From positions 120,001 to 152,000 of the forward strand of contig NZ_JHUX01000004.1 in assembly GCF_000619845.1 (NCBI RefSeq): 32,000 nucleotides of DNA. Reading direction: 5' to 3'. Shown here in pieces: positions 969 through 22,199 of the stretch. The notes below the pieces were generated by a model. It made no database searches. It was given only the letters and a program-made list of their open reading frames with translations, and was not told where the DNA came from. The position numbers and the translations under genes were made by a program. The stretch's first letter is position 1, and each line of letters starts with the position of its first letter. The stretch comes from Alkanindiges illinoisensis DSM 15370 (GTDB lineage: Bacteria > Pseudomonadota > Gammaproteobacteria > Pseudomonadales > Moraxellaceae).

Positions 969-1505
969 TTACTTTGGTGATCGTGTTGGAAGCTTACCAC
1001 CCTTCTTTATGGCTATATTGATAGCACTAGAAAGTTTAGCTACATGATCCAAACCAAAAAAAGCCGAATACTCTTTTAAAGGCGTGGTCATCTTTTCCCT
1101 CATCATTTCATGATTTTTTTTAAGCTCAGGATAATCATCATTTTCGTTAAAGGCATTAACCGCTATGTCATCGCCCACATACAAACGTCCACCATTAGAA
1201 AGACAATACTCAGTTAAATAATCAAGTAAATCATAAATAAATTTTCTTGGAACATTAGTTATATGAGAGAGCATATAAACATGAGAAATATGTAGAGAAG
1301 ATATTCCATTCTCAAGTTTGCTATATCCGGATTTTGATATACCACCCAATTGAAAACCCATGATTTCCTGACTTACATCTAACTCTGTCCTGAATAGATA
1401 TAAGATATAGCCAAATAAACTATCAACCGAACACCTAAAAGTCCTCTGCTGATCTTCTAATATTTTCATTGTTTCATCGAAAGAAAGATGATCACTATTT
1501 TTCAT
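969..1505 (-). CDS. HTH (XRE-like) regulator with uncharacterised C-terminal domain
   Basis: 178-aa ORF with strong SD (aaggagg) upstream. The segment SQEIMGFQLGGISKSGYSKLENG resembles an XRE helix-turn-helix. It is divergent from the AlpA-like gene. Confidence 0.45.
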   Translation of the reverse strand: MKNSDHLSFDETMKILEDQQRTFRCSVDSLFGYILYLFRTELDVSQEIMGFQLGGISKSGYSKLENGISSLHISHVYMLSHITNVPRKFIYDLLDYLTEYCLSNGGRLYVGDDIAVNAFNENDDYPELKKNHEMMREKMTTPLKEYSAFFGLDHVAKLSSAINIAIKKGGKLPTRSPK

Positions 1506-1738: not shown

Positions 1739-1987
1739 ATGAATACTGAATTTTCACAACTTTCCCAAAAGTATCTGATTAGTCAGAAAGATTTGGCAAG
1801 AAAGCTTGGGATGAGCGTAGATGCCCTACGCAAGCTGCAAAAAATTGATCCTGTATTTGCCCAAGCTATGATTAAAATGGGTTCAACTCGACAAGCTGCT
1901 GTTTTTTACATAGTCGCTGAAATTTTAAAGTGGATTGAGTCAAAAAAAACTCAGAACGTGTTTAATCAAGCTATTGAATGCAAATGA
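1739..1987 (+). CDS. AlpA/excisionase-like small HTH protein
   Basis: 82 aa with SD agagga. The N-terminal HTH (ISQKDLARKLGMSVDALRKL) followed by ...EILKWIESKK has the layout of AlpA/Xis-type winged-helix proteins. Confidence 0.45.
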   Translation: MNTEFSQLSQKYLISQKDLARKLGMSVDALRKLQKIDPVFAQAMIKMGSTRQAAVFYIVAEILKWIESKKTQNVFNQAIECK

Positions 1988-2138
1988 AAAAAGCTGCTCT
2001 AAAGCAGCCTTTCTCAGTGAGAACGCTGGTTGCCGCCAGCTTCCATCACAAACTGAATAATCGACTCAAAATCAATCACCAGCAGTTCATCCTAACATAA
2101 AAATTTAGGATGAGCATGCTGGTAAATATTCTAACAGC

Positions 2139-3335
2139 TTGGAACACTCCAAGCCTATATTAGGATCTTTTCCAATGGTTAAGCCTTATCACGAAGCAGT
2201 GGATGGCAAGTTATTACTGGATCAAATTATTGAGAAGGTTAACTTGCATATTACCTGTGAACCACAAGTTGCTGTCGCAATTGCTCTATGGATTATGTTC
2301 ACTTGGTGTATTAATGCATTTGATATCGCACCAATTGCCTGCATTACCGCTCCTGAAAAACGCTGTGGTAAAAGCCAGCTTTTAACACTGATGAGTTTAA
2401 TGTCCAAAAATCCTTTAAACACATCCAATATTTCACCAGCAGGACTATTCCGAACTATCGATGCCTTTGCACCCACTTTATTTATTGATGAAGCAGATAC
2501 CTTTGTCGCTGGTAATAATGAGTTACGAGGAATTTTAAACAGTGGCCAAGACAGGGCTAATGCCTATGTGATCCGCTTGGTCGGTGAAAAATTTGAACCT
2601 AGGCGGTTTTGTACTTTTGGTGCCAAGGCTATTGCAGGCATTGGACAGTTACCCAGTACTCTAAAAGACCGCTCTATTACTTTAGAACTCAGGCGACAGT
2701 ATAAGGACGAGGTACGCCAGCGCTTACGGCATACTGACAAGGCAGAGTTTGCGCTAATGAGTAGGATGCTGATGCGCTGGGCACAGGACAACATGGAAGC
2801 ACTTGCAATCGCACGTCCAGTTTTACCTGATGTATTAAATCATCGGGCACAGGATAATTGGGAACCGTTATTTGCGATTGCTGATCAAGCTGGTGGGCAC
2901 TGGCCAGAAACGGCACGACAGGCTGCTATTACTATCTCTGGTATTGATGAGGAATCACAAAGTATCAATGAACAGCTATTAAGTGATCTTCGGGATATTT
3001 TCCAAACCTTCCCTTTGGAGCGCTGGAGTACCAAAGCGCTACTACAGCAATTATGTGCCAATGAAGAAACACCTTGGCATGCATGGAACAAAGGTAAACC
3101 AATGACAGCTTATCAACTAGCCCATCAGTTGAAGCCCTTCAAAATCCGGCCAAAACAAATCAGAGTTGGTAGCGAAACATGTAAAGGTTACGAGGCTGAA
3201 GATTTTAAAACTACTTTTGAGCGTTACCTGTCAAAGTGTGAGCCTCCTTCCCTAACTTTACCCGAAACAGGGAAACACGAGCCTAACGGCATTGCCTTGG
3301 CGATGTTAGAATATTTTAATACCATCCAATCATAA
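2139..3335 (+). CDS. DUF3631-type P-loop protein (island replication/helicase-loader-like)
   Basis: Walker A-like APEKRCGKS and Walker B LFIDEAD. C-terminal motifs KDRSITLELRR, DNWEPLFAIADQAGGHWPETAR and CKGYEAEDFKTTFERY match my recollection of DUF3631. The ORF opens at TTG 2139; ATG 2175 is an alternative start. Confidence 0.65.
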   Translation: MEHSKPILGSFPMVKPYHEAVDGKLLLDQIIEKVNLHITCEPQVAVAIALWIMFTWCINAFDIAPIACITAPEKRCGKSQLLTLMSLMSKNPLNTSNISPAGLFRTIDAFAPTLFIDEADTFVAGNNELRGILNSGQDRANAYVIRLVGEKFEPRRFCTFGAKAIAGIGQLPSTLKDRSITLELRRQYKDEVRQRLRHTDKAEFALMSRMLMRWAQDNMEALAIARPVLPDVLNHRAQDNWEPLFAIADQAGGHWPETARQAAITISGIDEESQSINEQLLSDLRDIFQTFPLERWSTKALLQQLCANEETPWHAWNKGKPMTAYQLAHQLKPFKIRPKQIRVGSETCKGYEAEDFKTTFERYLSKCEPPSLTLPETGKHEPNGIALAMLEYFNTIQS

Positions 3336-3830: not shown

Positions 3831-4121
3831 TTAGGCATGATCAGCTAACACCTGTAATGCAGCCTCTACGACCTCAAGTAGACGTAGTGCTAACGGGTTA
3901 TCAGCAATCACATGGTATTCGTCTGCTTCAAGCTGATGGGTTTCCACGTAGTCTAGGACATGGTTTAACATCGCTTGGCTAATCAGGTCAGTATCATGCT
4001 CGGTTAGTAGCTGTAAGGCTGCAAAGTTCAAAGCTTCGATATAGACGTGGGTTTCATTATCTATGGTTTCGTGGGTAATGGGTAATTCATAAGTTACGAC
4101 TTCTTTAATACTGGACATCAT
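3831..4121 (-). CDS. Small, strongly acidic protein (hypothetical; DNA-mimic/anti-restriction or antitoxin-like composition)
   Basis: Start chosen at the internal ATG ATG preceded by aggaaataaattt. The 96-aa product has 18 D/E versus 2 K/R by my count. The longer 161-aa form overlaps the upstream gene and adds an unnatural basic leader. Confidence 0.5.
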   Translation of the reverse strand: MMSSIKEVVTYELPITHETIDNETHVYIEALNFAALQLLTEHDTDLISQAMLNHVLDYVETHQLEADEYHVIADNPLALRLLEVVEAALQVLADHA

Positions 4122-4254
4122 AAATTTATTTCCTTTTTTATTGATTTGCTGGTTCATGATTTTTTTAAATTCGTGTTTATAGTGGTCACTAATGTGTTGT
4201 GAGCTACTAAATTTCTTCCTCTGGAATTGGCTGCATTTATTATCAATGTTTTTA

Positions 4255-4803
4255 TCATTGGTCTTGGCAAGGTATAAATACCTGTCGATACAATCCAGTG
4301 TTTCCTGCTTGACCAAGTGGTAATAAGGATGCAGTGGCTTCGGCAGCGTTGGGAATACCTTCCTCTGGTAGATACCGCATCCGTTTTACAATTTCTCGTT
4401 CACTGTCGTTGTAGTTCACATCGACATGCTTTAAGCCTTGTAATGCAGGCAGTGCAATATTCCTGAACAGGTGATCATAGTCGGCATTCAAAAATGGAAC
4501 ATCAAGAATCAGGCAAAAGTGAATATGTACCGTCTCACAGAATTTCTGCATATAAGTCTGTTCAACTGACCAGAAGTACATCAGGCCGTTTACCTTATCC
4601 TTCAGTACACGGTTTAGACGCTGGGCGATGGATCGGATATCAAACTCATACTTGGTAAACAATACGAAATGGGCAGCTACGGGATTAAGCATGGTCTCAT
4701 TAGCTTGCAGGATGACCGCAGCAATGGTCTCAGCATTGTCATGGTCATATTGATAGCTTTTTTTGTGTTTGGAATTAATCAGGTTATAGATATTTCTATG
4801 CAT
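4255..4803 (-). CDS. YagK/YfjJ-like (inovirus Gp2-type) protein with HxH motif
   Basis: LMYFWSVEQ...VHIHFCLILD resembles the gYiWvrE...HYHvlLll pattern of YagK/YfjJ-family proteins found in P4/CP4-57-like islands. HIH is a His-hydrophobic-His motif. Confidence 0.4.
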   Translation of the reverse strand: MHRNIYNLINSKHKKSYQYDHDNAETIAAVILQANETMLNPVAAHFVLFTKYEFDIRSIAQRLNRVLKDKVNGLMYFWSVEQTYMQKFCETVHIHFCLILDVPFLNADYDHLFRNIALPALQGLKHVDVNYNDSEREIVKRMRYLPEEGIPNAAEATASLLPLGQAGNTGLYRQVFIPCQDQ

Positions 4804-5506: not shown

Positions 5507-5755
5507 TTATGGCTTGTTAACTGCATCAAAATTTAAGCCATTAAAGAACAATGAAGGATTACTCTCTAAAGCGTTCAGCCAATCCAGCAACTCAATCACA
5601 TCCAAGCGGCGTTCAAGCAGCTCAGTCTTGGAAATGTAAGATTGAGGTTTAAGTAGTTTCTTCGCTAGTTCAACCTGCGTAATTTTCTTTTCATCTCTAA
5701 TCTGGATGAGCTTGGCAATTACTAAGCTATAGCGTGGATCATGGATAGTTCGCAT
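5507..5755 (-). CDS. XRE-family HTH transcriptional regulator
   Basis: KITQVELAKKLLKPQSYISKTELLERRLDV is a classic XRE HTH. ATG at 5755 is preferred; the ORF track opens at TTG 5791. Confidence 0.6.
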   Translation of the reverse strand: MRTIHDPRYSLVIAKLIQIRDEKKITQVELAKKLLKPQSYISKTELLERRLDVIELLDWLNALESNPSLFFNGLNFDAVNKP

Positions 5756-5781
5756 GACCAGCACTATCAGGGAATATGAAA

Positions 5782-5802
5782 AATATCCCAAAATAGGATA
5801 TT
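5782..5802. promoter_or_regulatory. Inverted repeat AATATCC-N7-GGATATT in the divergent XRE / djlA-like intergenic region (candidate operator)
   Basis: Perfect 7-bp arms at 5782-5788 and 5796-5802, between the two divergent starts. Confidence 0.3.
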
Positions 5803-5852
5803 ATTAAACCTATAAGTTATTATTTAAAAAATATTGCTATAAAGGGGTTTAC

Positions 5853-6665
5853 ATGGTCTGGCTCATCATTCTGTTTATTGTTGGCATCATCATTGAGATA
5901 TGCAAGCAAAACGATAACAACTCAACATCTGACAGTGTGCCAAAAATTGGTAATGGACAAGAACAGCATAATGCTGCTAACGAAGCACAGCACAACTCAT
6001 TTAAGAACCTTTATCCCTTTATTGATCTGTATACCTACTATGCCCTAGAGGGCAAGCGGTCTTGGACACCTGAAAAAATCCAGTTCATTAAAACAGTGCT
6101 TAGCCCATTAAATGATGCTGAAAAGATATTGCTTCGGGATCGGCTAAAGCATGTACCTAACGTAAGCCTGAGTATCCTGATTGATGGGGTAAAACAGGCA
6201 GTCAGCAATAATCCGGCAGCACGTCCTGAAATTACTTATGTAATAGCAAGGATGCTGGTTATTGACCAAACCCCTCACCCAAGCATTGAACGCAAGATTA
6301 ATGATTTAGGACATTCCTTTGGCTTATCTAATGATGAGATTGGCAGGATTATCAGTACAGCCATTCATGCCAGTGAAGAATCCTATCAATCTGGGGAATC
6401 ACAGCAGGAACACCAAGGCTATGAGCAACAAACCACAACGAACTCTGCCACTGAATGGGCATGTGAAATCCTAGGGCTATCACAGGCAGAGATTAGCACA
6501 GCACGTATCCAACAAGCCTACCGCCAGAAGATGCGGGAATATCACCCTGATAAGCACCAAGGCTTGCCAGAAGCCATCCAGAAGCTCCTGCATGAAAAGA
6601 CACAGGACGTCAATAAGGCTAAGGACATATTACTCAAGCTAGCCAATAACAAAATGAGTGCTTAA
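5853..6665 (+). CDS. djlA: Membrane-anchored DjlA-like J-domain co-chaperone
   Basis: N-terminal TM helix (VWLIILFIVGIIIEI), a central TerB/DjlA-N-like region, a Q-rich linker, and a C-terminal J domain with an intact HPD (AYRQKMREYHPDKHQGLPEAIQKLLHEKTQDVNKA). This closely parallels the E. coli DjlA J domain. SD aagggg. Confidence 0.75.
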   Translation: MVWLIILFIVGIIIEICKQNDNNSTSDSVPKIGNGQEQHNAANEAQHNSFKNLYPFIDLYTYYALEGKRSWTPEKIQFIKTVLSPLNDAEKILLRDRLKHVPNVSLSILIDGVKQAVSNNPAARPEITYVIARMLVIDQTPHPSIERKINDLGHSFGLSNDEIGRIISTAIHASEESYQSGESQQEHQGYEQQTTTNSATEWACEILGLSQAEISTARIQQAYRQKMREYHPDKHQGLPEAIQKLLHEKTQDVNKAKDILLKLANNKMSA

Positions 6666-6676
6666 GGAAGATTACG

Positions 6677-7114
6677 ATGCTAAGAACACTATTACTACTA
6701 CTGGTTGCTGTGGGTGGGCCAGTCGGCTTGGTCACTTATATTATGCTTCACGGTAGGATTCAAAAAGCCAAGCTAGCGCTATCCTCAGAAGATCATTACA
6801 GCAGGCTAAAGACACCTGCATCCTCGACACTTAGCTACCAAAGCCAAAGCACAAGTCGCACTTTGCAGCCAGTGCCGAGTAGTGATCATAAGCAACAGGA
6901 TACCCGATCCATTGAATGGGCTTGCCAAGTGCTAGGGCTAACAATGGAAGGACTAACGCCAGAGACGATTGAAAAAGCCTACAATCGAAAGATGGAAGCG
7001 TATCAGGCCAGCGATCAACAGAATCTACCTGAATCGATTCAGCAGCTATTGCATGAAAAGATTCAGGAGGTAAAAGAGGCTAAAAAAGTTTTATCAGAGG
7101 GTAATAAAATTTGA
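6677..7114 (+). CDS. Membrane-anchored J-like protein lacking the HPD motif (paralog of the DjlA-like C-terminus)
   Basis: N-terminal TM helix. The C-terminus IEWACQVLGL...AYNRKMEAYQASDQQNLPESIQQLLHEKIQEVKEAKKVL aligns with the upstream gene's J domain, but HPD is replaced by QAS-D. SD aaggaag. Confidence 0.65.
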   Translation: MLRTLLLLLVAVGGPVGLVTYIMLHGRIQKAKLALSSEDHYSRLKTPASSTLSYQSQSTSRTLQPVPSSDHKQQDTRSIEWACQVLGLTMEGLTPETIEKAYNRKMEAYQASDQQNLPESIQQLLHEKIQEVKEAKKVLSEGNKI

Positions 7115-7116
7115 AT

Positions 7117-9840
7117 TTAATATTCAAAAGGAATCATTCTTTTATATCTTGTCTTTAATGCATCGACCCCACCTTCCATTATTGAGCATACCAAATCCCT
7201 AACAGCTTTCTCTTGTAACGCACCACTAGCTTCAATTTGAATTAGACCTTTATTTTGTAAAGCTATTACATTTTCAGAGTCGGAGTTGACTACTATATTT
7301 GGATTATGTGTTACAAGAATAACCTGCCTTTTGGTTTTTGATTCTTTTAGCTGTTTAACAATTAATCTAGTAATTAGAGAGTTATCTAGATCATCTTCTG
7401 GTTGATCTAGAATTAATGGCTCATTACCATAATTCAATAATAAGCTCAGTATCGTTGCTGATTTTTGACCTGCCGATCCTTCAGCAATATTTCTAAAATT
7501 ATTTCCATTAGTTCTAAAATCAATTTTGATATCATCGTGTGGAAACCATCCGAGGATGCTTTCAATTACTTCAGAGGAAGAATTTATTTTCATTAGGTGA
7601 TCGAATAATCTTTTCTCAATCTTTTCTTTTATAACACTAGCTATTGGGTTTGATAATATCTCCATTTTAAATTCTGATATTATTTTATGACATTCTTCAA
7701 TGTCATAATTTTTGTTCTTAAAATCATTTTCCAAATTAAATAAAATGCCTTTTTGCTCATCGGAGTCATAAATACTACTTGAAAAATAGTCTCCTGTTTT
7801 TTGTATACATGCTCTAAAACCATTTTCATTAATTTTACCAAAAGGAATTATAGTAACTCTAATTTCATCATTGCTAGAAAAATAATTACTTATAAATTCT
7901 TTTCTACGTTTGGTTAGATTCATCCTATTTTCTATCAATTTACCATATATAGCTTTTAATTCGATTTTATTATTTATTAATTCACTCTCATATATACTAA
8001 TATTCTCCAAATTTTTATCAATAATTTCTATGCTATTCACTAATTTCTGATGACTTTGAAAGTCAATACCTACATCTTTGAGTTGATCTAAAGTTATTTT
8101 ATAATCTTCAATAGCTCTATCTATCCTCTTATAATCATCTATTTGAAGAATTTTTTCCTCAAAATCCGTAAAAAGATTACTCAGTTCCTGAGTTTTAATA
8201 ACTAAATTATTTTTAATATCAGCAACTAGATTTAAAATTGAATTAATTTCATTATTTGCATATGTTTCATCTATTTGATTAGATATTTCTGAGTAATTAT
8301 CTGTAAATTTTGTTAGTTCCAATATTTTCTCTGAAACACTATTTTTAAAATCCTTAAATTTATTTTTTTGTATTAAGGCATTTTTATAGTCTTGTGCTAT
8401 TTTTTCATTTAAGGGATTTTCAATAAGGCTTAACTTATTAATTAAGTCTTTCCTCTCACCTAATAGCTGATTTTTAAAACCTATCTCAGAAACTAAATAA
8501 TTTTTACGATTCAAACTATGTTTTAAATCCCTAATTATTTCATTTGATTCTCTATTAAGACTATTAATATCTACTATGAGTGATTGATCAATCATATTAA
8601 ATAAAAAAGAAGGATTCTTGGAAAGTTCAAATATCTGCTTTTGGCTATAAATACTGATTGGAAATCTTTGATGAATTTCCCCAAATTCTTCCTCTAAGAT
8701 ATTAAATTCATTGTCAATTTTATATATATTATGTTTTTGATTATCAGCAGACCATACAATTTTATATTTTAAATTATCTTTTTCATAAATACATGAAATA
8801 ACACTTTTTTCTAAGAACATACCAGAATCTTCACGAGATTTTGAAATCTTTTTAAATAATTCAAAGGTTCTTTTAATTTCATGTAAATCTTTAGTATCTA
8901 AAATTTCTTTATCCTTTGATAATACTATCCTTATAAATTCCACTAAAGAAGATTTACCTGCACCTCTACCACCAATTATTGAATTTAGCCAAGGACTAAT
9001 ATTTATAGTAAGTCCACTAGAGCGTCCTGCATACTTACAATCCTTAATATCTATAGATTGTATTAATAGTTTAGATTTTTCATCATTTGGATTAATGCTT
9101 GTTGTCTCCTTCCTTTTAATAGAAGTATTTCCATCTATTAATGCAAGTTTTAGACCCTCAATAGTTGGAGCACCCATTTTGACCCAAGTAAATGCCCTAC
9201 CAACCTCTCTGGGCATATGAGCATCACTACCTATTACATTTGGCAAGTTGCTTATATGTGAATATTTATTTTTAAAATCATTATTCCATAATGAAAATTT
9301 TTCTGGAAAAACGACTTCTACAGCTAAAACCGCTTGTATCAATTGTTTGTATGAACTCATTGATTGCATCAGAAAAGCTCCTGCTGCAAGATCAACATGA
9401 GCTGGAATAGCAATCCCTCCAGCTTGATGAATTGCATGTACAACTTCAATTGCACTTTTAGTGCAGGGTATATCTATTTGATTTGGTTTAGCTCCTACCG
9501 CTCCAATTAAACTAGAAATTTCTTCTTGGGAGCAGCTTGGATCAAATATTGCAAGTATATGAACATTCGAGTTTGCTGTTATTTCCATACCAGGAAATAT
9601 AGAAATATTTTTACCTTCATTTTTTAATAATTCAGCCTCTTTTTTTAGGCTATCTATCCATGTTGCAGTGTTATGGTCTGTTACAGCTACGCACTCTATC
9701 CCTTCATCTATAAATTTCATTAGCCAATCACGAGGGTTAATCGTTTTTGGATCAAATTGAGCTTTAGCATAATCACTTGATGCAGGTGTATGTGTATGAA
9801 AATCAAATTTCCACCATCTTGCTCCAGTAGTATTAATCAT
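7117..9840 (-). CDS. PHP-domain + SMC/ABC-like coiled-coil ATPase (single-gene anti-phage candidate, Ppl-like architecture)
   Basis: N-terminal PHP motifs (WWKFDFHTHTPASSDY, VAVTDHNT, IPAHV, GSDAHMP). Walker A GGRGAGKSS, a long N/K/I/E-rich helical region, a signature-like GSAGQKSA, Walker B LILDQPEDDLD and VILVTHNPN. SD aagggga. Confidence 0.8.
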   Translation of the reverse strand: MINTTGARWWKFDFHTHTPASSDYAKAQFDPKTINPRDWLMKFIDEGIECVAVTDHNTATWIDSLKKEAELLKNEGKNISIFPGMEITANSNVHILAIFDPSCSQEEISSLIGAVGAKPNQIDIPCTKSAIEVVHAIHQAGGIAIPAHVDLAAGAFLMQSMSSYKQLIQAVLAVEVVFPEKFSLWNNDFKNKYSHISNLPNVIGSDAHMPREVGRAFTWVKMGAPTIEGLKLALIDGNTSIKRKETTSINPNDEKSKLLIQSIDIKDCKYAGRSSGLTINISPWLNSIIGGRGAGKSSLVEFIRIVLSKDKEILDTKDLHEIKRTFELFKKISKSREDSGMFLEKSVISCIYEKDNLKYKIVWSADNQKHNIYKIDNEFNILEEEFGEIHQRFPISIYSQKQIFELSKNPSFLFNMIDQSLIVDINSLNRESNEIIRDLKHSLNRKNYLVSEIGFKNQLLGERKDLINKLSLIENPLNEKIAQDYKNALIQKNKFKDFKNSVSEKILELTKFTDNYSEISNQIDETYANNEINSILNLVADIKNNLVIKTQELSNLFTDFEEKILQIDDYKRIDRAIEDYKITLDQLKDVGIDFQSHQKLVNSIEIIDKNLENISIYESELINNKIELKAIYGKLIENRMNLTKRRKEFISNYFSSNDEIRVTIIPFGKINENGFRACIQKTGDYFSSSIYDSDEQKGILFNLENDFKNKNYDIEECHKIISEFKMEILSNPIASVIKEKIEKRLFDHLMKINSSSEVIESILGWFPHDDIKIDFRTNGNNFRNIAEGSAGQKSATILSLLLNYGNEPLILDQPEDDLDNSLITRLIVKQLKESKTKRQVILVTHNPNIVVNSDSENVIALQNKGLIQIEASGALQEKAVRDLVCSIMEGGVDALKTRYKRMIPFEY

Positions 9841-9919: not shown

Positions 9920-10222
9920 TCAAAGTTTTATAACTTCTGGCTTATGCTTGTTTAGAGATTGGTTTTCATTGTCAGCTAACTTATCCCTATAATCAGCCCA
10001 CCGTCCACACGTTGCACTAGGATAGTACTATGTTATAGAAACTAGCCACACCGCCTTTACATGCGCTAGGGCGGCTTCTAAATATTTCTCATTAAGTGTT
10101 TTACTGGCAACTTTCCTAAAGCTATGTGGTATTTATTGGCCTTTATACCCTAAGCGTATTAAGATATCAGAGACAAAAGGGCTTTTAGTATTGTACTTCT
10201 GGCTCAGGAACAGATAAGGCGA
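9920..10222 (-). pseudogene. Tyrosine-integrase 3' remnant (paralog of the int at 16893-18119), with in-frame stops
   Basis: Nucleotide similarity to 16893-17220. Translation gives PYLF.S....SP..SD.LIRLGYKGQ*IPHSFRKVASKTL..., parallel to SPYLFPSRS...RRLGYEGRQSPHGFRHIASTTL. It is truncated at 10222. Confidence 0.75.
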
Positions 10223-10600
10223 ATGATAGGTGAGCCTGTTGGCTTAGTGGCATACATCACGATTCACACTAAGACTGAACAAGCCAAACTATCACGCTCA
10301 TCAGAAGATCATTATAGCAGGCTAAAGTTACCTGCATTATCGATGCTTAGCTATCAAAACCAAAATACAAGCTTCAGTGTGCAATTAGTTCCAAGTAATG
10401 AACATACTCATGCCTATCTATTGAATAGGTTTGTGAAGTCTTAGGGCTGCCAATGGATTAATTAACCAAAGAGACGATTAAAAAAGCCTCTAATCGCAAG
10501 ATAGAAGCGCATCAGGCCAGCGATCACCAAAATCCATTCGAGAGTTATTGGAGCAAAAGATTTAGGAAGTTAATGAGGCGAAGAACATTTTCACTTTCTC
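10223..10600 (+). pseudogene. Decayed second copy of the HPD-less J-like gene
   Basis: Colinear with 6710-7100 at the nucleotide level. It lacks the first ~11 codons and carries several stops and frameshifts (e.g. TAG at 10442). It still encodes ...AHQASDHQN..., i.e. it is also HPD-less. Confidence 0.8.
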
Positions 10601-10764: not shown

Positions 10765-12033
10765 ATGCAAACTAAATTATTCCCCAAAGCATCTTTTGAA
10801 ATAGAAGCCAAGCACACTACACACTCGGGTGGTAAAGGTGAATATTTACATGATTGGTATTCATATTTAGAAGGTTTTTCATCATCATTTGTATATGAAA
10901 TTTTAAAAACTTATGCTCCTGATGCTGAAATCGTTCTGGAACCTTTTGCTGGAGTTGGAACGACTCCAGTGAATAGCTCGATTTTAGGTTGCACATCTTA
11001 TTATTGTGAAATTAACCCTGTTTTAAGAAAAGTTGTCGCAATTAAGCAAAAAATTCTTAACCTTTCAGATAGTAAAAAATCAGAATTTTTATTAGATATC
11101 AATGAGCTAGGGAATAATTTAAATCATTATTTACAGAATGTAAGACCATCAGAAGAACTAAGGAAAAAATATTACGATTGTTTTGATAAGAGTATTTTCT
11201 TTTCTCAAGATACTTTTGAGCAAGTACTAAAATTTAGATCCTTAGTGGATCAGATTGCATTAAAAGATGAACTTTTAGCTGAAGCTTTAGAGGTAGCCAT
11301 ACTATCTTGTTTAGTAACTTGTTCCTTATTAAAAAGATCAGGAGATGTACGTTTTAAAACTCCAAAAGAATTATCTAAAGGTGTACCTTTATTACTACCT
11401 TCAGTATTAAAGCAACTAAAGCTGATGATGGATGATTGTAGAAATTGTCCTCAAGCATTAGCTCCAATAAACTTATTGGCAAATAATTCAAAAGAAGTTT
11501 TAGATATCGAAAGTATCCAAGCTGATATTGTTATCACAAGCCCTCCTTACTTAAATGGTACTAATTATTTTCGAAATACAAAGCTCGAACTTTGGTTTAT
11601 TGGAGAGCTTTTAAACAATAAGAGTCTTCGTATTTTTAGAGATCAGGTTGTGACATCTGGAATAAATGATGTCACTAAAGATAAAGGGAAAGATATTTTA
11701 CCTTTGGTATCTGATTTATATGCTGAATTATTAGAAAAAGCTTATGACGCTAGAATTGCTAAGATGATGTCAGCATATTTTTATGAAATGAAAATAGTGC
11801 TAGAAGGATTGAAACACCATACGAAACTTAATGGTGTTATATGCATTGATATTGGAGATAGTGTCTATGCAAATGTGTATATTCCTACACACATAATTTT
11901 GACGGAAATCGCGAAAGATTTAGGTTTTTCATTATATGAAGAAATTTTATTAAGGAAAAGATATTCCAATGGTGGAGCTGAGTTAGGTCAGTATTTATTG
12001 GTATTAAAGAAGATGGATAGTGAAGAAAAATGA
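10765..12033 (+). CDS. DNA amino-methyltransferase 1 (SPPY catalytic motif; N4-C or N6-A)
   Basis: AdoMet motif I EPFAGVGTT sits near the N-terminus and catalytic motif IV ITSPPYLNG ~190 aa later (an alpha-type motif order). The stop overlaps the next gene (ATGA). Confidence 0.8.
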   Translation: MQTKLFPKASFEIEAKHTTHSGGKGEYLHDWYSYLEGFSSSFVYEILKTYAPDAEIVLEPFAGVGTTPVNSSILGCTSYYCEINPVLRKVVAIKQKILNLSDSKKSEFLLDINELGNNLNHYLQNVRPSEELRKKYYDCFDKSIFFSQDTFEQVLKFRSLVDQIALKDELLAEALEVAILSCLVTCSLLKRSGDVRFKTPKELSKGVPLLLPSVLKQLKLMMDDCRNCPQALAPINLLANNSKEVLDIESIQADIVITSPPYLNGTNYFRNTKLELWFIGELLNNKSLRIFRDQVVTSGINDVTKDKGKDILPLVSDLYAELLEKAYDARIAKMMSAYFYEMKIVLEGLKHHTKLNGVICIDIGDSVYANVYIPTHIILTEIAKDLGFSLYEEILLRKRYSNGGAELGQYLLVLKKMDSEEK

Positions 12034-13181
12034 AATCTGCCAAACTCGCTGAAATTTTAGAAAAATGGGATAACTTTAAAACAACGTTTCCTCATATGGA
12101 GGAACCATTTTCAAAAAGAAATTGGGGATCTGATTTACACTCGGTTTGTTCTTATCAAGGAAAAATGAAACCAGCTTTGGCTTATCATTTAATTGATACC
12201 TTCTCGGTAAAAGGAGATATCGTCTTAGATCCATTTAGCGGATCAGGAACTATTCCATTCGAAGCCGCTATAAATGGTCGTTTTGCCTTTGGGTTAGATA
12301 TTGGTGTATTAGCTACTTCTCTCTCGAATGCGAAGTTAAAAAAGCATAATAAAGAAGAAGTACTTAAAATAATTGACATGTTAGATGATTTTATTCGTAA
12401 TAATACACCGCAAGATAAAAGCATATCGGACTCAATAGGAGTCGCTTTTAATAAAACTATTCCAGAATATTTTCATGAGGATACTTTTAAAGAAATTCTC
12501 TTAGCGAGGGAATTTTTTCTTAAACACAATGACCCAGAATCAGAGAATTGGTCATTAGTTTTCGCATGTATGCTACACATTTTACATGGTAATAGGCCTT
12601 ATGCTTTAAGTCGTAATAGTCATCCTATTACCCCTTATGCACCTACGGGTGAATTTATATATAAGAATGTAATTGAAAAGTTGACAAATAAAGTTAACAA
12701 ATCAATAGAGGCTCAAGAGTTATTAAATTTAACTTCATCTAAATGCTTTTTATCAGATATCCTTAGTAAATGGCCTGAAGAAATTCAAAAAGTCGATTCA
12801 ATTATTACATCTCCCCCTTTTTTCGATAGTACAAAATTCTATATGACGAACTGGATGAGGTATTGGTTTTGTGGATGGAATAAGAAAGATTTTCAAGAAA
12901 ATCCTAAATCTTTTGTAGAAGTGATGCAGAAAAAAAATTTTGATGTTTATGAGTTTATATTTAAAGAAAGTTATGAACGTTTAGTTGCTAATGGTATTGC
13001 AGTCTTTCACTTAGGTCATAGTGATAAATGTGATATGGCTAAATCATTAATTCCTTTTGCTGAAAGATACTTCGAGATTCTTGATGTTTTTACAGAGTCT
13101 GTTGAGCATTGTGAAAAACACGGGATCAAAGATAAAGGTAGCGTTAAAGGACACCAATATTTAGTCTTAATGAAAAAGTAA
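12030..13181 (+). CDS. DNA amino-methyltransferase 2 (SPPF catalytic motif; N4-C or N6-A)
   Basis: Motif I DPFSGSGTI and motif IV ITSPPFFDS, with the same layout as methyltransferase 1. Translationally coupled by ATGA at 12030-12033. Confidence 0.8.
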   Translation: MKSAKLAEILEKWDNFKTTFPHMEEPFSKRNWGSDLHSVCSYQGKMKPALAYHLIDTFSVKGDIVLDPFSGSGTIPFEAAINGRFAFGLDIGVLATSLSNAKLKKHNKEEVLKIIDMLDDFIRNNTPQDKSISDSIGVAFNKTIPEYFHEDTFKEILLAREFFLKHNDPESENWSLVFACMLHILHGNRPYALSRNSHPITPYAPTGEFIYKNVIEKLTNKVNKSIEAQELLNLTSSKCFLSDILSKWPEEIQKVDSIITSPPFFDSTKFYMTNWMRYWFCGWNKKDFQENPKSFVEVMQKKNFDVYEFIFKESYERLVANGIAVFHLGHSDKCDMAKSLIPFAERYFEILDVFTESVEHCEKHGIKDKGSVKGHQYLVLMKK

Positions 13182-13236: not shown

Positions 13237-14643
13237 TTAGCCTAGATTTCTGTAAAGTTTGAGAAGATCTATTTTTTTTCCAACATCTGTTTTGTTTAGT
13301 GTTTTCTGTAAAGCTTTTAATAATAAATCTGAAGTCAGCTTTCCATCGCGTACTTTCTGTAGTTCTGATTTTTGGCAAAAAGAATTAAATAACCAATCTA
13401 AATTTTCAATTAGACAATTTACCGCATTCAAGTTAGGACTTGGATTTTGAAGTTCATCAAGTGAAAGTCCTGTTATTCTTGATAATTCAGAAAGTTTTTC
13501 TTGTGAATAAAATTCAGAAGGCGCTCTGTCCCTTTTTTGTGAATTGCAGGAACCACAAAGACATGTTGCTGTCTCATCTAATGGCCATAAGAGAGCTAAA
13601 GGACGGGTATGATCTAAATGCATTTCTTTCGGAGATTTGAGGTCAATTGAACAATTAAAACATTTTTTGCCAAATTTTAACCATATGTCATCAGTTAACT
13701 CACGACCACCTGATTTCTCTCTATATATAAGTTGCGGGCTTTTGCCAAAAATCTCAGTTAGGAGTAATTCAAAAGCTCGTCTTCTTGCCCCATCCTCCTT
13801 CATTTGAGCAGCAGTACGCTGTGGATTGTGTGCAGCATTAACCTCATATTTTTTACAGAATCTACATTCCAACTGATAACCGTACTCTAATTGCATTATT
13901 TGATTTGTTTCAACGTTTCTTAGCTTCCCAAAACCAGCATGGGAACAAGGCCGCCTATGAACGGCAACACAATGATTTGAAAAACTTAAGTGATGTCTCT
14001 CGTTATTAATATTTATTGGAAGGAAGCGAGCACAACGATTGCAAGACTTTAAGTAGATATGTGCATTTGAAGTTTCAGTCGAGTCAAAGCTTAATTCGAT
14101 GCTGACATCACCTTCTACAGAATAGAAATTTGATTCTGGTGCAAATTGGTACATATTTTTCAATAGTACAGGCTTTTCCGATTTTGCCCATTCCAAGTGT
14201 TTATGTTTGACAATACCACAGCCAACTTCGTAAAGTGCTAGATATGAATCTTCAAGGGCTGTAAATCTAACTTGTGTTTGCTCAACATTCGTATAAGTAC
14301 TAGAAGTTCCCATTGAACCAAACTTTGACCAGTTATTATCTTCTGGGTCAGTATGAAGCTCCTTTACAAATCCCCCTTTAAAAACTTCGACCCTTATTTG
14401 GTCATTACATGAATACCATCCCCCAAATGCAACTATATCTCCAAGGTTATGGTCTGGAATTTGGAATGTTATAGTAATATTTTGCCCTTTAGGAATTAGT
14501 ATACTTTCAATATCTTCTATTTTAAGCTCGCCACCAGTTGAATCAGGATGGCTTTTAAATCCACTAGTTCTTGTAGTTGTTCTTCTACGGCCTGCAAATT
14601 CAGTTTTCCCCGGAAGTTTATTGCCAAAATTTACTTTTTCCAT
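13237..14643 (-). CDS. HNH (beta-beta-alpha-Me) endonuclease with four CxxC pairs, putative restriction endonuclease subunit 1
   Basis: HLDHTRPLALLWPLDETATCLCGSCNSQKRDR plus CNRC, CRFC, CFNC and CGSC. The ATG directly abuts the C-gene stop (TAAATG), the classic C-R operon arrangement. Confidence 0.7.
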   Translation of the reverse strand: MEKVNFGNKLPGKTEFAGRRRTTTRTSGFKSHPDSTGGELKIEDIESILIPKGQNITITFQIPDHNLGDIVAFGGWYSCNDQIRVEVFKGGFVKELHTDPEDNNWSKFGSMGTSSTYTNVEQTQVRFTALEDSYLALYEVGCGIVKHKHLEWAKSEKPVLLKNMYQFAPESNFYSVEGDVSIELSFDSTETSNAHIYLKSCNRCARFLPININNERHHLSFSNHCVAVHRRPCSHAGFGKLRNVETNQIMQLEYGYQLECRFCKKYEVNAAHNPQRTAAQMKEDGARRRAFELLLTEIFGKSPQLIYREKSGGRELTDDIWLKFGKKCFNCSIDLKSPKEMHLDHTRPLALLWPLDETATCLCGSCNSQKRDRAPSEFYSQEKLSELSRITGLSLDELQNPSPNLNAVNCLIENLDWLFNSFCQKSELQKVRDGKLTSDLLLKALQKTLNKTDVGKKIDLLKLYRNLG

Positions 14644-14859
14644 TTACATTCCCTCAAAAAGCTGAGATAAATTTTTGTCTAATGCCTTAGCAATGGAATT
14701 CAAAGCCCTCAAAGAGATATTTCTCTTTCCTGTTTCAACGCCACTTACGTAAGTTCGATCTAGACATGCTTTATCAGCTAAAGCCTCTTGAGATAGCCCA
14801 TAATTTTTTCTGAGAATTTTAAGGTGGTTACCAAAAGCTCTAAGGAGTTCTTCTTCCAT
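14644..14859 (-). CDS. Controller (C) protein of a restriction-modification system, XRE-type HTH
   Basis: The 71-aa sequence LSQEALADKACLDRTYVSGVETGKRNISLRAL strongly resembles C.PvuII/C.AhdI-type controller proteins. It lies immediately upstream of the endonuclease. Confidence 0.8.
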   Translation of the reverse strand: MEEELLRAFGNHLKILRKNYGLSQEALADKACLDRTYVSGVETGKRNISLRALNSIAKALDKNLSQLFEGM

Positions 14860-14903
14860 GGCAGAAGCTGTCCAATTTTTTACTTAATCTTATGATAGTT
14901 TTT

Positions 14904-14935
14904 GTAGACTATGAGCCCACGTACTATGAGTCACA
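14904..14935 (-). promoter_or_regulatory. C-box operator pair upstream of the C gene
   Basis: tgtaGACTATGAGCccacgTACTATGAGTCaca holds two ACTATGAG(T/C) boxes (14907-14916 and 14922-14932), resembling GACT-N3-AGTC C-boxes. Confidence 0.55.
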
Positions 14936-15045: not shown

Positions 15046-16395
15046 TTATTTTTTTACATCTTGATAAAGTTGCAATAAGTTATAATTCTTTCCATATTCA
15101 GTTTCATCTAATGTCCTTTGTAAGGAAGTAAGAAATATTTCAGCAGTAATTTTTCCATCTCTATCTTTTTGTAAAGTATTGCTAAAACAGAAATCTGATA
15201 TTAGCCACTCTATATTATCTAATATCAACTTTACTGCTTCTAGGTTTACTTTAGCATGGGTTAAATCTGAAATAGACAATCCAATAATAGATGATAATTC
15301 TTCTATTTCTTCTGGTAGATAATATTCAGATGGTAACTTATTACTTTTTTGAGAATTACAAATTTCACATAAGCATGTGGCTGTTTCATCTAACGGCCAT
15401 AATAATGATAAAGGTCTTGTATGATCTAAATGCATATCTTTGGGATTATTTAGTTCAATATCGCACTTAAAACATCTTTTATTAAATTTAATCCAAGTAT
15501 CTGTAGCTAATCCACCATACCGATGTTTATTTTTATAACTTAACAGATGGCTTTTTTTATATAATTCAGTCAATAAGGACTCCATAGCACGTCTTCTTGC
15601 TGAATCTTCTCTTAACTGATCAATCGTACGTTGCTTATTTAGTGGTATATTTACAAATAGCTTTTTACAAATCCTGCATTCTAATTGATATCCATATTTT
15701 AGAGACAGAGCATCGTCACATTCTTCATGTTTTAAAGTGTTAAATCGTTTATGATTAGAAAAACTTAAGTGACTTTTTTCATTATTAATATTTATTGGTA
15801 AAAAACGCGCACAACGATTACAAGATTTTAAATACAAATCTATTTTTTTTTCTAACATATTGGCTGCTTGATTATAGACAATAATTTTCCCTTTATTTTG
15901 GTAAAAATTCCCTTCTGGAGCATATGTATGAATATTATCTAATTGTTTTTCAACATATGCGTCATTTCGAACTCTTTCAATTTCCTCATGATAAACTGTA
16001 CCACAATCAATATTATGAAAAGCTATATTAGTATCTTCTAATGCAGTAAAAGTTATTGAGGTGGTTGGAACATTATTTGTTGTATCAGAAACTCCTATAG
16101 AACCAAATTTAGACCAATTTAGCGGTTGATAAATTATCAATATAGTGTCTACAAACCCTCCTTTTTGTATATGTACTTTTATATTTTTATCACAAAAAAA
16201 CCATCCTCCAAATGCTACAAGATCTCCAATATTATGAGGTGGTATTAAAAACTCAATTTTAATGGACTGATTTTTATTAAGAAAAAAACTATCTTTTTTT
16301 TCTATTTTATAATTTCGCCCAGTACTGTCTGGATGGGTGCTATAACCAGATGTTTTTGTGGGCTGTCTTCTCTTAGGTAATAAAATATCATTCAT
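15046..16395 (-). CDS. Paralogous HNH endonuclease, putative restriction endonuclease subunit 2
   Basis: 449 aa, colinear with the 468-aa protein over its full length. It shares SG..SHPDSTG, GD.VAFGGW, NWSKFGS, YLKSCNRCARFLPININNE, YGYQLECR.CKK and HLDHTRPLSLLWPLDETATCLCEICNSQK. Confidence 0.7.
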   Translation of the reverse strand: MNDILLPKRRQPTKTSGYSTHPDSTGRNYKIEKKDSFFLNKNQSIKIEFLIPPHNIGDLVAFGGWFFCDKNIKVHIQKGGFVDTILIIYQPLNWSKFGSIGVSDTTNNVPTTSITFTALEDTNIAFHNIDCGTVYHEEIERVRNDAYVEKQLDNIHTYAPEGNFYQNKGKIIVYNQAANMLEKKIDLYLKSCNRCARFLPININNEKSHLSFSNHKRFNTLKHEECDDALSLKYGYQLECRICKKLFVNIPLNKQRTIDQLREDSARRRAMESLLTELYKKSHLLSYKNKHRYGGLATDTWIKFNKRCFKCDIELNNPKDMHLDHTRPLSLLWPLDETATCLCEICNSQKSNKLPSEYYLPEEIEELSSIIGLSISDLTHAKVNLEAVKLILDNIEWLISDFCFSNTLQKDRDGKITAEIFLTSLQRTLDETEYGKNYNLLQLYQDVKK

Positions 16396-16608
16396 TACAT
16401 AGCCTTAAATAGATCGAATAAATTTTTTCTAGGACTTTAGCAATGCAATTAGGAGCTTTTAAAGAGATATTTCTTTTTCCTGCTTCAACGCCACTCACGT
16501 AAGCTCGACCTAGACATGCTTTATTAATAAAGCATCTTGAGATAGGCCATAATCTTTTCCGAGAGTTTTAAAATGGCTTCTAAAGTTCTTTAGGAGTTCT
16601 TTTTCCAT
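16396..16608 (-). pseudogene. Frameshifted copy of the C (controller) gene
   Basis: Nucleotide-colinear with 14644-14859. A 1-nt deletion (gctttagctgataaagca becomes gctttattaataaagca) gives MEKELLKNFRSHFKTLGKDYGLSQDALLIKHV*. Confidence 0.75.
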
Positions 16609-16892
16609 TGCAGAAGCTATTCATTTGTGTAACTATTGTTATAGTAATTTATGTGGCTTATACATCCACGGACTATGAGTAACAAAATGGTTTATCGGAA
16701 AGTCAGTAGTTATTCCATACAATTTCTAGAAAGCTTACAAGAAAATTACATGTAACGGTATTTTCTGATTTTAAAAGAATTTTATTATCAACTGCTTAAT
16801 TTTAAGTTTTCAAGGACACTACCTTCCCTTTAACATTCTGGAATTAAAACTCATAGATTAGCTATAAGTTTTAATTTGATTAAAAATAAGCT

Positions 16893-18119
16893 TTAAGCTT
16901 TTTTAAAAACAATAACTTCATCATTAGCTAAACTATCCAGATAATCAGCCCACCATTGCATCATAGGCTTACGATCATTCAGGTAAGCTGCTTTATTGTA
17001 TACTCCTTCTACCCCACCAGTGACATGGGCTAAAGCACTTTCTACATGATCACGGTTAAAACCTTTTTCCCTTAATGTCGTGCTGGCAATGTGCCTAAAG
17101 CCATGTGGCGACTGTCTCCCTTCATAGCCTAATCGTCTAAGTGCCATAATAAAGACTGTATCTGATTTTGGACTATTGTTACTACTACGGCTAGGGAATA
17201 AATAAGGACTATCACTACTATACGCCTTAAGCTCTTTTAATAGCTCTACTGCTTGTGTCGGTAAAGGAATGATATGTTCACGCCGCTTTTTCATGCGCTC
17301 TGCGGGAATTGTCCATTCGGCTGCTTGAAGATTAACCTCTTTCCATAAAGCTGTTCTAAGCTCACTGGGACGGCAAAACAGCATAGCTAATAGCTGTAAC
17401 CCTATACTTACATCACGAGTTGGATAGTTTCTAATTGCTCTTAATAATGCTGGCAATTCATTTGCAGAAACATGCTTCATATTTTCTGATTTAGCTGTTT
17501 CCAAGAACCTGTGTAAGCCTTCTAATGGGTTAAACTCAATCCGGCCAGTCACTTTAGCAAGATCATAAATTTCCTGGCACAAAGCACGCATGCGATTAGA
17601 CTGCTCAATGATCCCCTTCTCTCGCTGGATACTCTTAAACAGATTCATCCATTCAATAGGTTTAATTTCCTTATATGCACGCTTACCCATAACAGGAAAA
17701 ATATGTTTTTCTAAAGCGCCCTTATTGCGCTTCATTGTACCTTCAGTCCATTTATTGACTTTTCCATCCAGCCACTCTACCGCTAGCTTTTCGAAGGTAC
17801 TGTTAGTTGCTTCTAATTCTTGCTGCTTTTTTTCTTGTTTAGTAATAATAGGATCTTCACCCTTCGATAGGGCTTTATTTAATTCTTGCGCTGTTTTACG
17901 TGCAAGTTCGCCAGATACCGCTGGATATGTTCCTATACCAACCCAAGACCATTTACCATCAGCTTTCTTATAGCGTAGTTGCCACGACTTATTGCCATTA
18001 GGTTTGATACGAAAATATAAGCCATTACCGTCTAACTCTCTATACTCCTTATCTTCCGGCTCTAATGTCTTAAGAGTTGTATCAGTCATTGGCCGTTTCT
18101 TAATATCATCGCGCTTCAT
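16893..18119 (-). CDS. int: P4-type tyrosine integrase
   Basis: N-terminal arm-binding-type domain (GLYFRIKPNGNKSWQLRYK). Catalytic region HGFRHIASTT ... VEGVYNKAAY. Strong SD aaggag. Adjacent to and co-oriented with ssrA. Confidence 0.9.
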   Translation of the reverse strand: MKRDDIKKRPMTDTTLKTLEPEDKEYRELDGNGLYFRIKPNGNKSWQLRYKKADGKWSWVGIGTYPAVSGELARKTAQELNKALSKGEDPIITKQEKKQQELEATNSTFEKLAVEWLDGKVNKWTEGTMKRNKGALEKHIFPVMGKRAYKEIKPIEWMNLFKSIQREKGIIEQSNRMRALCQEIYDLAKVTGRIEFNPLEGLHRFLETAKSENMKHVSANELPALLRAIRNYPTRDVSIGLQLLAMLFCRPSELRTALWKEVNLQAAEWTIPAERMKKRREHIIPLPTQAVELLKELKAYSSDSPYLFPSRSSNNSPKSDTVFIMALRRLGYEGRQSPHGFRHIASTTLREKGFNRDHVESALAHVTGGVEGVYNKAAYLNDRKPMMQWWADYLDSLANDEVIVFKKA

Positions 18120-18255: not shown

Positions 18256-18298
18256 AGGCATAAAAAAACCCTTAACCATTGCTAGTTAAGGGTTTTAG
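18256..18298. repeat. Proximal 43-bp direct repeat; contains the ssrA intrinsic terminator
   Basis: Identical to 762-804. On the minus strand it reads as the hairpin aacccttaac/gttaagggtt followed by a T7 run, 41 nt after the tmRNA CCA end. Confidence 0.9.
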
Positions 18299-18339
18299 TC
18301 TGATACATCATCATGTTGCAGTGTATCAATTTAGGTATA

Positions 18340-18697
18340 TGGTGGAGATGGCGGGATTTGAACCCGCGTCCGCCAGCACTACGCCCACGAATCTACATGC
18401 TTAGTTATCGTCTATTGCTTTAACCGCTAACAGCCCAACGAACAGGACGTTAGAAGCGATTCCCTAAGTTTGACACCATGTCACGGGACATTACACGGTG
18501 CGGATCTGTGTGCGTGCGCTTCGGTCGGCCTCACCAACCACAGATATTTGGTTCGGCGGACAAGCAGCCCTTAGGCTGCTAGAGCGTAAGTTTCGTCGTT
18601 TGCGACTATAAAAATGCAAGATTGATTTACGAGAGATAATGCGCTCTCGGCATGCATCATTGAGTTTCATCACCAGCGTCGAAGCCAGAACATCCCC
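18340..18697 (-). ncRNA. ssrA: tmRNA (transfer-messenger RNA)
   Basis: The minus strand starts GGGGATGTTCTGGCTTCGACG and ends GGTTCAAATCCCGCCATCTCCACCA. The tag ORF GCAAACGACGAAACTTACGCTCTAGCAGCCTAA encodes ANDETYALAA (18603-18571). Confidence 0.92.
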
Positions 18698-21792: not shown

Positions 21793-22199
21793 AATGTTCT
21801 CCACAAGATCAAATGTTGAAAATAAAAAAATCCACAATTTCAATTTAATATATAAAGCGGCTTGGCAGATGACTAAGTGTTTCTTGTGATATTTTTATAC
21901 ATCGATTATCTAATGTGACACTTGTGTAATTGTTGCTTCGACGTAGCTGGCAATATGTAGAAACGGGTCAGGTATTGCACTTTAATCACTTAAAATAGCG
22001 ATCTGTTGTTTCATCTACGGTCATCACAGGAAAACTTGCAGCATCCATAGACTTTCAACCGACAAATCCGTACAATATGCGGTTAATTCAAGCGAGAAGA
22101 CTCAAGGAGACCGTGTTACCTCAACACTGTCTATCATTTGGCACGTCTACTCGCTTTTTTACAGCCCCAATTTTCTGGTTCAAGCTCAGGAGCTCAGTT

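Follow-up and report, generated by a model that had tools for sequence, protein, structure and literature searches.

A J-domain protein gene and an adjoining HPD-less J-like gene on a genomic island of Alkanindiges illinoisensis

Results

We analyzed a stretch of 32,000 nucleotides (nt) from Alkanindiges illinoisensis DSM 15370 (contig NZ_JHUX01000004.1, positions 120,001 to 152,000; hereafter the window), in which two adjoining genes encode membrane-anchored proteins related to J-domain co-chaperones. Gene 1 (5853-6665, forward strand) encodes a J-domain protein of 270 amino acids (aa) with a DjlA-like architecture, and gene 2 (6677-7114, forward strand) encodes a 145-aa protein with a transmembrane (TM) anchor, a linker motif rich in serine and threonine (S/T) at aa 37-70, and a J-like domain. 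The original prediction, made from the letters of the DNA and their open reading frames (ORFs), had placed both frames at these coordinates with 11 base pairs (bp) between them, which we confirmed. The stop codon of gene 1 overlaps a Shine-Dalgarno (SD) sequence, TAAGGAAG, which is followed by the 11-bp spacer (6663-6676, forward strand). Related loci (numbered L001 and so on) were obtained by locating the exact proteins from database searches on their contigs; the pattern TAAGGA[AG]G and the identical 11-bp spacing between gene 1 and gene 2 are conserved in eight loci. This conserved SD sequence overlapping the stop codon, together with the fixed spacing, argues for coupled translation of the pair.

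The protein encoded by gene 1 consists of a TM helix, an all-helical middle domain, a Q/S/E-rich linker, and a C-terminal J domain with HPD. Its hydrophobic windows are confined to aa 1-20, and the AlphaFold2 (AF2) model has a helix at aa 2-21, as expected of a single N-terminal anchor. Pfam DnaJ (PF00226) recognized the J domain at aa 205-261 (E=7e-9; 36.1 bits against a gathering cutoff of 27.8), where YHPDK is present. The same model matched 16/16 members of the gene 1 family; the aligned members all have the same architecture and keep HPD, except for one (P0026) that reads HSD. The middle domain (aa 50-170) was modeled from a nine-sequence alignment with a predicted local distance difference test score (pLDDT) of 77-94, and the top matches in a Foldseek search of the PDB were the TerB-family structure 2ou3 (E 0.098, prob 1.0, target-normalised TM score 0.56) and 2h5n. 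However, Pfam TerB (PF05099) matched 0/16 family members at E<=1, which leaves the TerB assignment without sequence support. Thus, of the complete DjlA architecture that had been claimed for gene 1, the TM helix, the Q-rich linker, and the J domain with HPD stood, whereas the TerB-like middle domain was recovered as a weak fold match and not by Pfam at the sequence level. Foldseek of gene 1 against BFVD gave no significant match. In hhalign, the gene 1 family profile was colinear with E. coli DjlA (97.8% probability, aa 138-263 versus 143-267); the alignment starts within the last helices of the DjlA TerB region and contains the DjlA-type 'HPDK..GLP' extension. Against the NCBIfam DjlA equivalog (NF006948), gene 1 scored 57 bits with a cutoff of 162, and the match was restricted to aa 136-262. 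Judged by these alignments, gene 1 is a distant relative of DjlA and not an equivalog.

Gene 2 aligned with the C-terminal 107 residues of gene 1 (BLASTP, 39% identity, E=2e-19), and its profile matched the gene 1 family profile in hhalign with 99.6% probability (E=5e-25), as expected of a J fold without HPD. The gene 2 profile also aligned with E. coli DjlA (91.6%). By the Pfam DnaJ model gene 2 is not a J domain (15.8 bits against the gathering cutoff of 27.8, HPD absent), and it scored 25.4 bits with the NCBIfam DjlA equivalog (cutoff 162). Searched against PDB sequences, the gene 2 profile yielded zero J-domain matches and only chance-level ones. The protein has its own N-terminal hydrophobic helix as its single hydrophobic segment, and YHPDK of gene 1 corresponds to YQASD, so that its earlier description as a TM helix plus a J-like domain homologous to gene 1 was correct.

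To stimulate the Hsp70 ATPase, J domains need both their HPD loop and their basic helix II. A search of 5.8 billion proteins gave ten gene 2 variants with 64-100% identity to the query, and 10/10 have YQ-[A/N/V]-x-[D/N/E] where J proteins have YHPDK. In addition, the basic residues of helix II (AYRxK[IM][KR]) are replaced with N, E, D or Q in the variants, which retain helix I (IEWACxVLGL) and helices III and IV (NLPESIQQLLHEKIQEV.EAK). As read from this alignment, the DnaK-contacting surface is specifically lost and the J scaffold is kept in the ten variants. We calculated the ratio of nonsynonymous to synonymous substitutions (dN/dS) pairwise by the Nei-Gojobori method from seven gene 2 DNA sequences and obtained 0.20-0.45 overall at dS 0.17-1.2. 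By region, the ratio was 0.94 for the TM segment, 0.15 for the linker motif, 0.82 for a short variable stretch, and 0.21 for the J-like domain. The values for gene 1 of these loci were 0.07-0.13, showing stronger constraint than in gene 2. Because gene 2 is under purifying selection, it is a conserved and selected gene and not a remnant; the original prediction had likewise held the HPD-less state to be ancestral and presumably selected, and had named an untranslated remnant as the outcome that would speak against it, which is contradicted by this selection and by the conserved SD sequence and spacing.

The most constrained region of gene 2 is the S/T-rich linker motif SEDHYSRLKSPASSTLSYQNQSTSRSVQPVP (window 6785-6886), and the gene also contains the invariant motif EDHYSRLKSPASSTLS. 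The S/T-rich motif had no database match and no counterpart among the J proteins of the architecture-B islands described below; the activity of gene 2 probably involves it. In L057, the TM segment of gene 2 is an unrelated hydrophobic sequence, and thus it is the property of an anchor, not its sequence, that has been kept.

Divergently from gene 1, a small regulator of 82 aa is encoded at 5507-5755 (reverse strand; XRE-family helix-turn-helix (HTH), Pfam HTH_3 E=4e-7). The choice of the ATG at 5755 as its start agrees with 82-aa homologues. These show 94% identity in L052 and L056 and 65% in L004, and they adjoin the J module each time; a divergent XRE gene is found beside the J gene in every context recovered where the contig extends far enough (L052 and L056 for the loci with the pair). 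The small XRE protein also shows weak HipB-like similarity. The region between the two start codons (5756-5852) contains GGAATAT, ATATCC, and GGATAT half-sites arranged as inverted repeats at 5771-5801, as well as weak sigma-70-like matches on both strands, and it is 94% conserved in L052 and L056, half-sites included. The half-sites are probably XRE operators, and the regulator would repress the gene 1-gene 2 operon through the GGATAT-type half-sites. Around the pair, neither promoter nor terminator scans gave matches better than the shuffled background.

The pair with the same 11-bp gap was found for seven further gene 2 variants (L006-8, L047/48, L052/53, L055, L056, L057, and L068/69). In the pair-bearing loci, similarity ends within the last 5-15 codons of gene 2, and the C-terminal tails differ. 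As a separate observation, the three independent metagenome assemblies of L006, L007, and L008 break in gene 1 at codons 233-235 (position 1-3 of each), probably because J/J-like 3' segments or co-resident island variants act as repeats. In a second group of islands (architecture B), the J gene comes after genes for two membrane proteins, one of 126-137 aa with four TM segments and one of the Zn-ribbon-DUF805 type (L001, 4715-5708; L050, 5308-6301; L065, 5045-6038; L004, 2186-4056), again with a divergent small XRE gene. This amounts to an alternative all-membrane operon around the same J protein. The overall backbone of the window recurs in L050 and L065, whose far ends each hold a P4-type integrase; the integrase of L050 is 68% identical to that of the window.

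The genes that follow the J or J-like gene differ from island to island. In the window the following gene encodes Ppl; in L001, a PDC-M26A-like protein and an unknown gene; in L050, the S and M subunits of a type I restriction-modification (RM) system; in L006, PDC-M48B, E1/E2/JAB, and type I RM; in L047, a 316-aa unknown gene, a resolvase, and a ThsB-TIR protein; in L055, a C5 methyltransferase; and in L065, an ImmA/HTH pair and DUF8370. In L004, a Rep-like gene comes next, followed by a resolvase and Tmn. Since similarity ends inside the 3' end of gene 2 and the cargo differs, the J or J-like gene is a conserved anchor at the edge of a hotspot of defence cargo. On the gene orders compared here, the XRE-J module belongs to the conserved backbone of a small and rare family of integrase-bearing islands in Moraxellaceae-like bacteria, and in most islands of the family it is the last conserved gene before variable defence cargo that runs to the integrase. 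In this the module behaves as backbone beside a cargo hotspot and not as cargo itself.

Rousset et al. (Cell Host Microbe, 2022) reportedly described that P4-like satellites and other integrative islands carry hotspots for defence genes. As in these, backbone genes and a P4-type integrase flank an exchange region for unrelated defence systems including Ppl. However, the backbone in the window consists of DUF3631, XRE regulators, and the J module, none of the P4 genes psu, delta, and sid were seen in it, and the anchor gene of this family is a J or J-like gene.

The island of the window is a low-GC element of about 17.5 kb inserted at the tmRNA gene of A. illinoisensis (18340-18697, reverse strand; ARAGORN, tag ANDETYALAA) and bounded by attachment (att) repeats. 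An intact P4-type tyrosine integrase gene (16893-18119, reverse strand; Pfam Arm-DNA-bind_3, Phage_int_M, and Phage_integrase) lies beside the tmRNA gene, and direct repeats of the tmRNA 3' end flank the element; the claim that the pair is island-borne is thus upheld. The attL-side repeat (762-869), a displaced tmRNA 3' end with a terminator hairpin, forms the left end of the composite island. It and the attR-side repeat (18256-18363, reverse strand) constitute a 108-nt direct repeat with 80% identity and a 45-nt identical core. Going by this repeat, the island provides a replacement 3' end and terminator to the tmRNA gene, and the displaced copy is the left boundary.

A second copy of gene 2 had been predicted at 10223-10600. 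A decayed gene 2 allele is indeed present (10226 to about 10600, forward strand), truncated at its 5' side from about codon 12, frameshifted, and reading HQASD. An integrase pseudogene lies back-to-back with it (9965-10231, reverse strand) and corresponds to the C-terminal third (about aa 310-412) of a tyrosine integrase of the P4 type. In tblastn with the L050 integrase the pseudogene showed 50% identity (E=6e-23) and contained deletions and in-frame stops, and a repeat (D9) matches it to the resident integrase gene. At the DNA level the gene 2 stub is 72% identical to resident gene 2, and its identity to the L047 clade is 75%. We rejected a recent duplication of gene 2 in situ on the basis of the 72% DNA identity and the adjoining integrase stub; the second copy is instead the stub of the J module of a second island, and the pseudogene marks the former right end of the left island.

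The back-to-back arrangement of the two pseudogenes is a deletion junction. Since the gene 2 stub abuts the integrase pseudogene, and the normal layout is backbone, J module, cargo, integrase, and att site, the window is best read, from this gene order, as two related islands formerly in tandem and fused by deletion. Island A would have consisted of backbone, gene 1, gene 2, Ppl, and integrase A, and island B of backbone, gene 1', gene 2', two methyltransferases, two paralogous genes, and integrase B next to the tmRNA gene; the fusing deletion would span from about codon 310 of integrase A to about codon 12 of gene 2'. The stub confirms another HPD-less lineage, although the alignment of homologues is the stronger evidence.

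The stub also bears on how gene 2 arose. With helix II and HPD left aside (about 47 positions compared), the J-like domain has a mean identity of 65% to the J domains of the DUF805-type islands and 56% to adjacent gene 1. The presence of a decayed stub and this closeness to the DUF805-type J domains, which over about 47 positions is only suggestive, suggest that gene 2 arose as a 3' fragment of the J gene of another island through an inter-island event. The fragment would have gained a start codon and an anchor and then been retained as gene 2. One might go further and regard gene 2 as a functionless by-product of such recombination, a leftover 3' piece of a J gene, of the kind that the window itself contains at 10226-10600; the greater similarity of the J-like domain to B-type J domains than to gene 1 would fit this as well. 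However, the ORF is intact in 10 variants with protein divergence up to 39%, the SD sequence and spacing are conserved, and a hydrophobic anchor is kept despite replacement of its sequence, whereas the real stub rapidly accumulated frameshifts and stops. With the low dN/dS of gene 2, and above all of its motif and J-like domain, the by-product explanation is largely refuted, and we regard it as very improbable.

The remaining genes of the island include an XRE/HTH_3 regulator (969-1505, reverse strand; 178 aa, Pfam HTH_3 E=1.8e-5), a backbone gene divergent from a replication-like module and syntenic with XRE genes of 177-182 aa in L050 and L065. The module consists of a small HTH-like backbone gene (1739-1987, forward strand; 82 aa, 52% identical to its L050 counterpart) and a DUF3631 backbone protein (2139-3335, forward strand; 398 aa, E=4e-47), in an order that recurs in L065; together (1739-3335) they form a putative replication/primase-associated module. 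Two further backbone ORFs, of 161 aa and 182 aa, overlap each other (3831-4803, reverse strand) and have weak homologues in syntenic position in L001, L050, and L004, and the 182-aa ORF is weakly Rep-like (Pfam REP_ORF2-G2P E=0.004, below the cutoff). No capsid-redirection or packaging genes were recognized in Pfam and PHROG scans of the backbone, which were non-exhaustive.

As for the cargo of the left island, the gene convergent with gene 2 and abutting it (7117-9840, reverse strand) encodes a Ppl/TrlF-family PHP-AAA anti-phage protein (PADLOC Ppl E=8e-134). The protein scored 546 bits with the NCBIfam TrlF family (cutoff 350) and 573 with the Ppl equivalog, whose cutoff of 1000 was not reached; by these scores it is a divergent member. 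Both the divergent XRE gene and this adjacent defence gene had been predicted correctly. The cargo of the right island begins with two type II-like DNA methyltransferases (10765-12033 and 12030-13181, forward strand; PADLOC MTase_II E=1e-53 and 3.5e-19), followed by two paralogous genes that are 49% identical (13237-14643, 468 aa, and 15046-16395, 449 aa; reverse strand). The paralogues had no Pfam, NCBIfam or PADLOC match. Their upstream regions are duplicated (repeats 14670-14935 and 16420-16684), and with the adjoining methyltransferases (10765-13181) they may be candidate undescribed restriction-like or defence cargo. Outside the island, unrelated chromosomal coiled-coil proteins, apolipoprotein-like and YtxH-like (20476-20937 and 21187-21843, reverse strand), are encoded near a glycerol-kinase-like FGGY gene.

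The family is very rare. An exhaustive HMMER search, in which the query was the N-terminal stretch of 200 residues encoded by gene 1, recovered 18 representative clusters from a set of 1.84 billion proteins. The gene 1 alignment, searched against one genome per species (185,579 species), retrieved generic J domains and zero family members; in IMG/VR it likewise retrieved generic J domains and no family member, and the gene 2 alignment gave a single weak partial match and no family member in JGI metagenome contigs. None of the complete E. coli genomes matched the locus in megablast, and tblastn against plasmid collections gave no match to the family. In phage collections, the tblastn matches were limited to two records labelled Acinetobacter phage, which encode a host-like 'DnaJ-like membrane chaperone' that aligned at 40% along the J domain. 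For gene 1 and gene 2, PHROGs gave no informative match and PADLOC-DB 2.0 gave 0 families at E<=0.01; we found no description of such a module in the literature on J-domain anti-phage systems and on DjlA and phage resistance. The expectation that the pair matches no described system therefore held.

These results bear on whether gene 1 and gene 2 might be no more than a chromosomal duplication of djlA that serves a housekeeping function. DjlA (E. coli b0055 and its orthologues), a membrane-anchored type III J-domain co-chaperone of DnaK, is of the same size as gene 1 (271 versus 270 aa) and has an N-terminal TM segment, a helical middle domain, a Gln/Gly-rich linker, and a C-terminal J domain in the same order; homology is colinear over the last about 125 residues, that is, the C-terminal half, and TerB-family structures are the top fold matches of the middle domain. 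However, gene 1 remains below the equivalog cutoff, its middle domain is not a Pfam TerB domain by sequence, and it belongs to a tiny family, is linked to an XRE gene and paired with a J-like paralogue, and lies on a mobile island. The housekeeping explanation is refuted by this context, an att-bounded low-GC island with its own integrase, and is opposed by the lack of a close relative in the scans of species genomes, plasmids, phages, and E. coli and by the few clusters of the N-terminal domain; we give it almost no credence.

Discussion

Non-activating J-like proteins are known as regulators in eukaryotic organelles. To our knowledge, no bacterial or mobile-element protein with a J fold but no Hsp70 activation has been described, and we did not find such an example in the literature. 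The closest parallel to the pair is Pam18 (Tim14) and Pam16 (Tim16) of the mitochondrial import motor, which likewise combine a membrane-associated J protein with a related HPD-less J-like protein, and which heterodimerize via their J-type domains (PMC3237618, PMC3806816). However, there is no detectable common descent past the J fold, the present pair belongs to a bacterial mobile element, and, unlike Pam16, gene 2 has an extra, strongly conserved S/T-rich motif.

We lean, with only slightly more confidence than doubt, towards an XRE-controlled backbone module in which gene 1 is a membrane-tethered recruiter of DnaK and gene 2 is its non-stimulating J-like partner or regulator. The N-terminal helix of gene 1 would tether the protein to the inner membrane with the J domain in the cytoplasm, and the J domain, with its HPD and basic helix II, would dock on DnaK, trigger ATP hydrolysis, and recruit DnaK to the membrane; we infer this recruitment from general J-domain biology. 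By analogy with the role of Pam16 for Pam18, gene 2 would act on gene 1 through a heterodimer of the J and J-like domains; alternatively, it might compete for the same membrane site. Possible benefits to the island would include phage exclusion at the membrane, DnaK-dependent steps of the island cycle, and stress signalling. Defence, addiction, and life-cycle roles of the module are all plausible.

Several observations weigh against this proposal. AF2 modeled gene 2 poorly (pLDDT 50). The S/T-rich motif of gene 2 is predicted to be unstructured (pLDDT <50), and the analogy with Pam16 leaves it unexplained. The TerB assignment of gene 1 depends on weak fold scores (E about 0.1). In the architecture-B loci (L001-5, L049-51, and L065-67), relatives of gene 1 with 30-42% identity occur without gene 2; a J-like partner is therefore not obligatory, and gene 2 is not universal, being absent from these more distant islands. 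Furthermore, in L004 the module adjoins the integrase and a backbone-like gene comes after the module, so the position as the last gene before the cargo is not universal.

The module itself could be an anti-phage or superinfection-exclusion device, in which the J protein at the membrane, acting with gene 2 or with the DUF805 and four-TM proteins, would either divert DnaK from phage functions that depend on it or monitor the chaperone status and trigger abortive infection. It is directly beside defence cargo in most islands, all of the partner proteins are membrane proteins, which is typical of exclusion systems, and it is under the control of a small XRE protein. Further points in its favor come from other J proteins. 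Rki of the T4-like phage RB43 is, like gene 1, a mobile-element-encoded J-domain protein for which host DnaK is a target and which is not a generic co-chaperone; it reprograms the heat-shock response, and its toxicity acts through DnaK and is abolished when the J domain is mutated (PMC3486835). Rki is, however, soluble and phage-encoded, is without a J-like partner, and has no sequence relationship to the present proteins beyond the J domain. Host DnaJ mediates phage sensing by bNACHT25 (PMC12169576), and overproduction of DjlA weakens the IgaA-RcsD interaction, which perturbs envelope signalling and triggers Rcs (PMC11709261). Against such a device, gene 1 and gene 2 have no PADLOC match and no recognizable effector domain, and the module stays the same from island to island as the neighbouring cargo changes, in the manner of a backbone and not of a swappable defence gene. 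We consider this role rather unlikely.

Another possible explanation is an addiction module, in which unrestrained gene 1 would be toxic by hyper-engaging DnaK at the membrane, gene 2 would neutralize it as a decoy, and the XRE protein would autoregulate the operon, so that the island is stabilized. The genes are tightly spaced and translationally coupled and stand beside a small XRE gene with weak HipB-like similarity, gene 2 evolves faster than gene 1, and toxicity of an overexpressed J protein is documented for Rki (PMC3486835). However, the architecture-B islands have the J protein without gene 2, and the gene order (J first, J-like second) and the protein sizes are atypical for toxin-antitoxin systems, which makes this explanation improbable. 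A bolder and still unlikely reading, which we consider slightly more probable, is that the J/J-like pair is a chaperone-directed immune or addiction device that would bring a logic like that of Pam18 and Pam16 into mobile-element conflict: gene 1 would hold DnaK at the membrane, and gene 2, as a decoy or guard, would use its S/T-rich motif to sense phage interference with the DnaK system or to release the activity of gene 1 upon infection, resulting in exclusion or abortive infection.

Conclusions

The J/J-like pair is real and undescribed, and its role is so far only inferred. The family is very rare, and this limits its general importance. The locus also records the evolution of islands, in which cargo is exchanged at breakpoints within the 3' part of the J gene and islands in tandem are collapsed by deletions. 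If the two proteins interact, the pair would be a simple genetic system in which to study the tuning of an active J domain by an inactive one, and it would show the use of the host DnaK machine by a mobile element.

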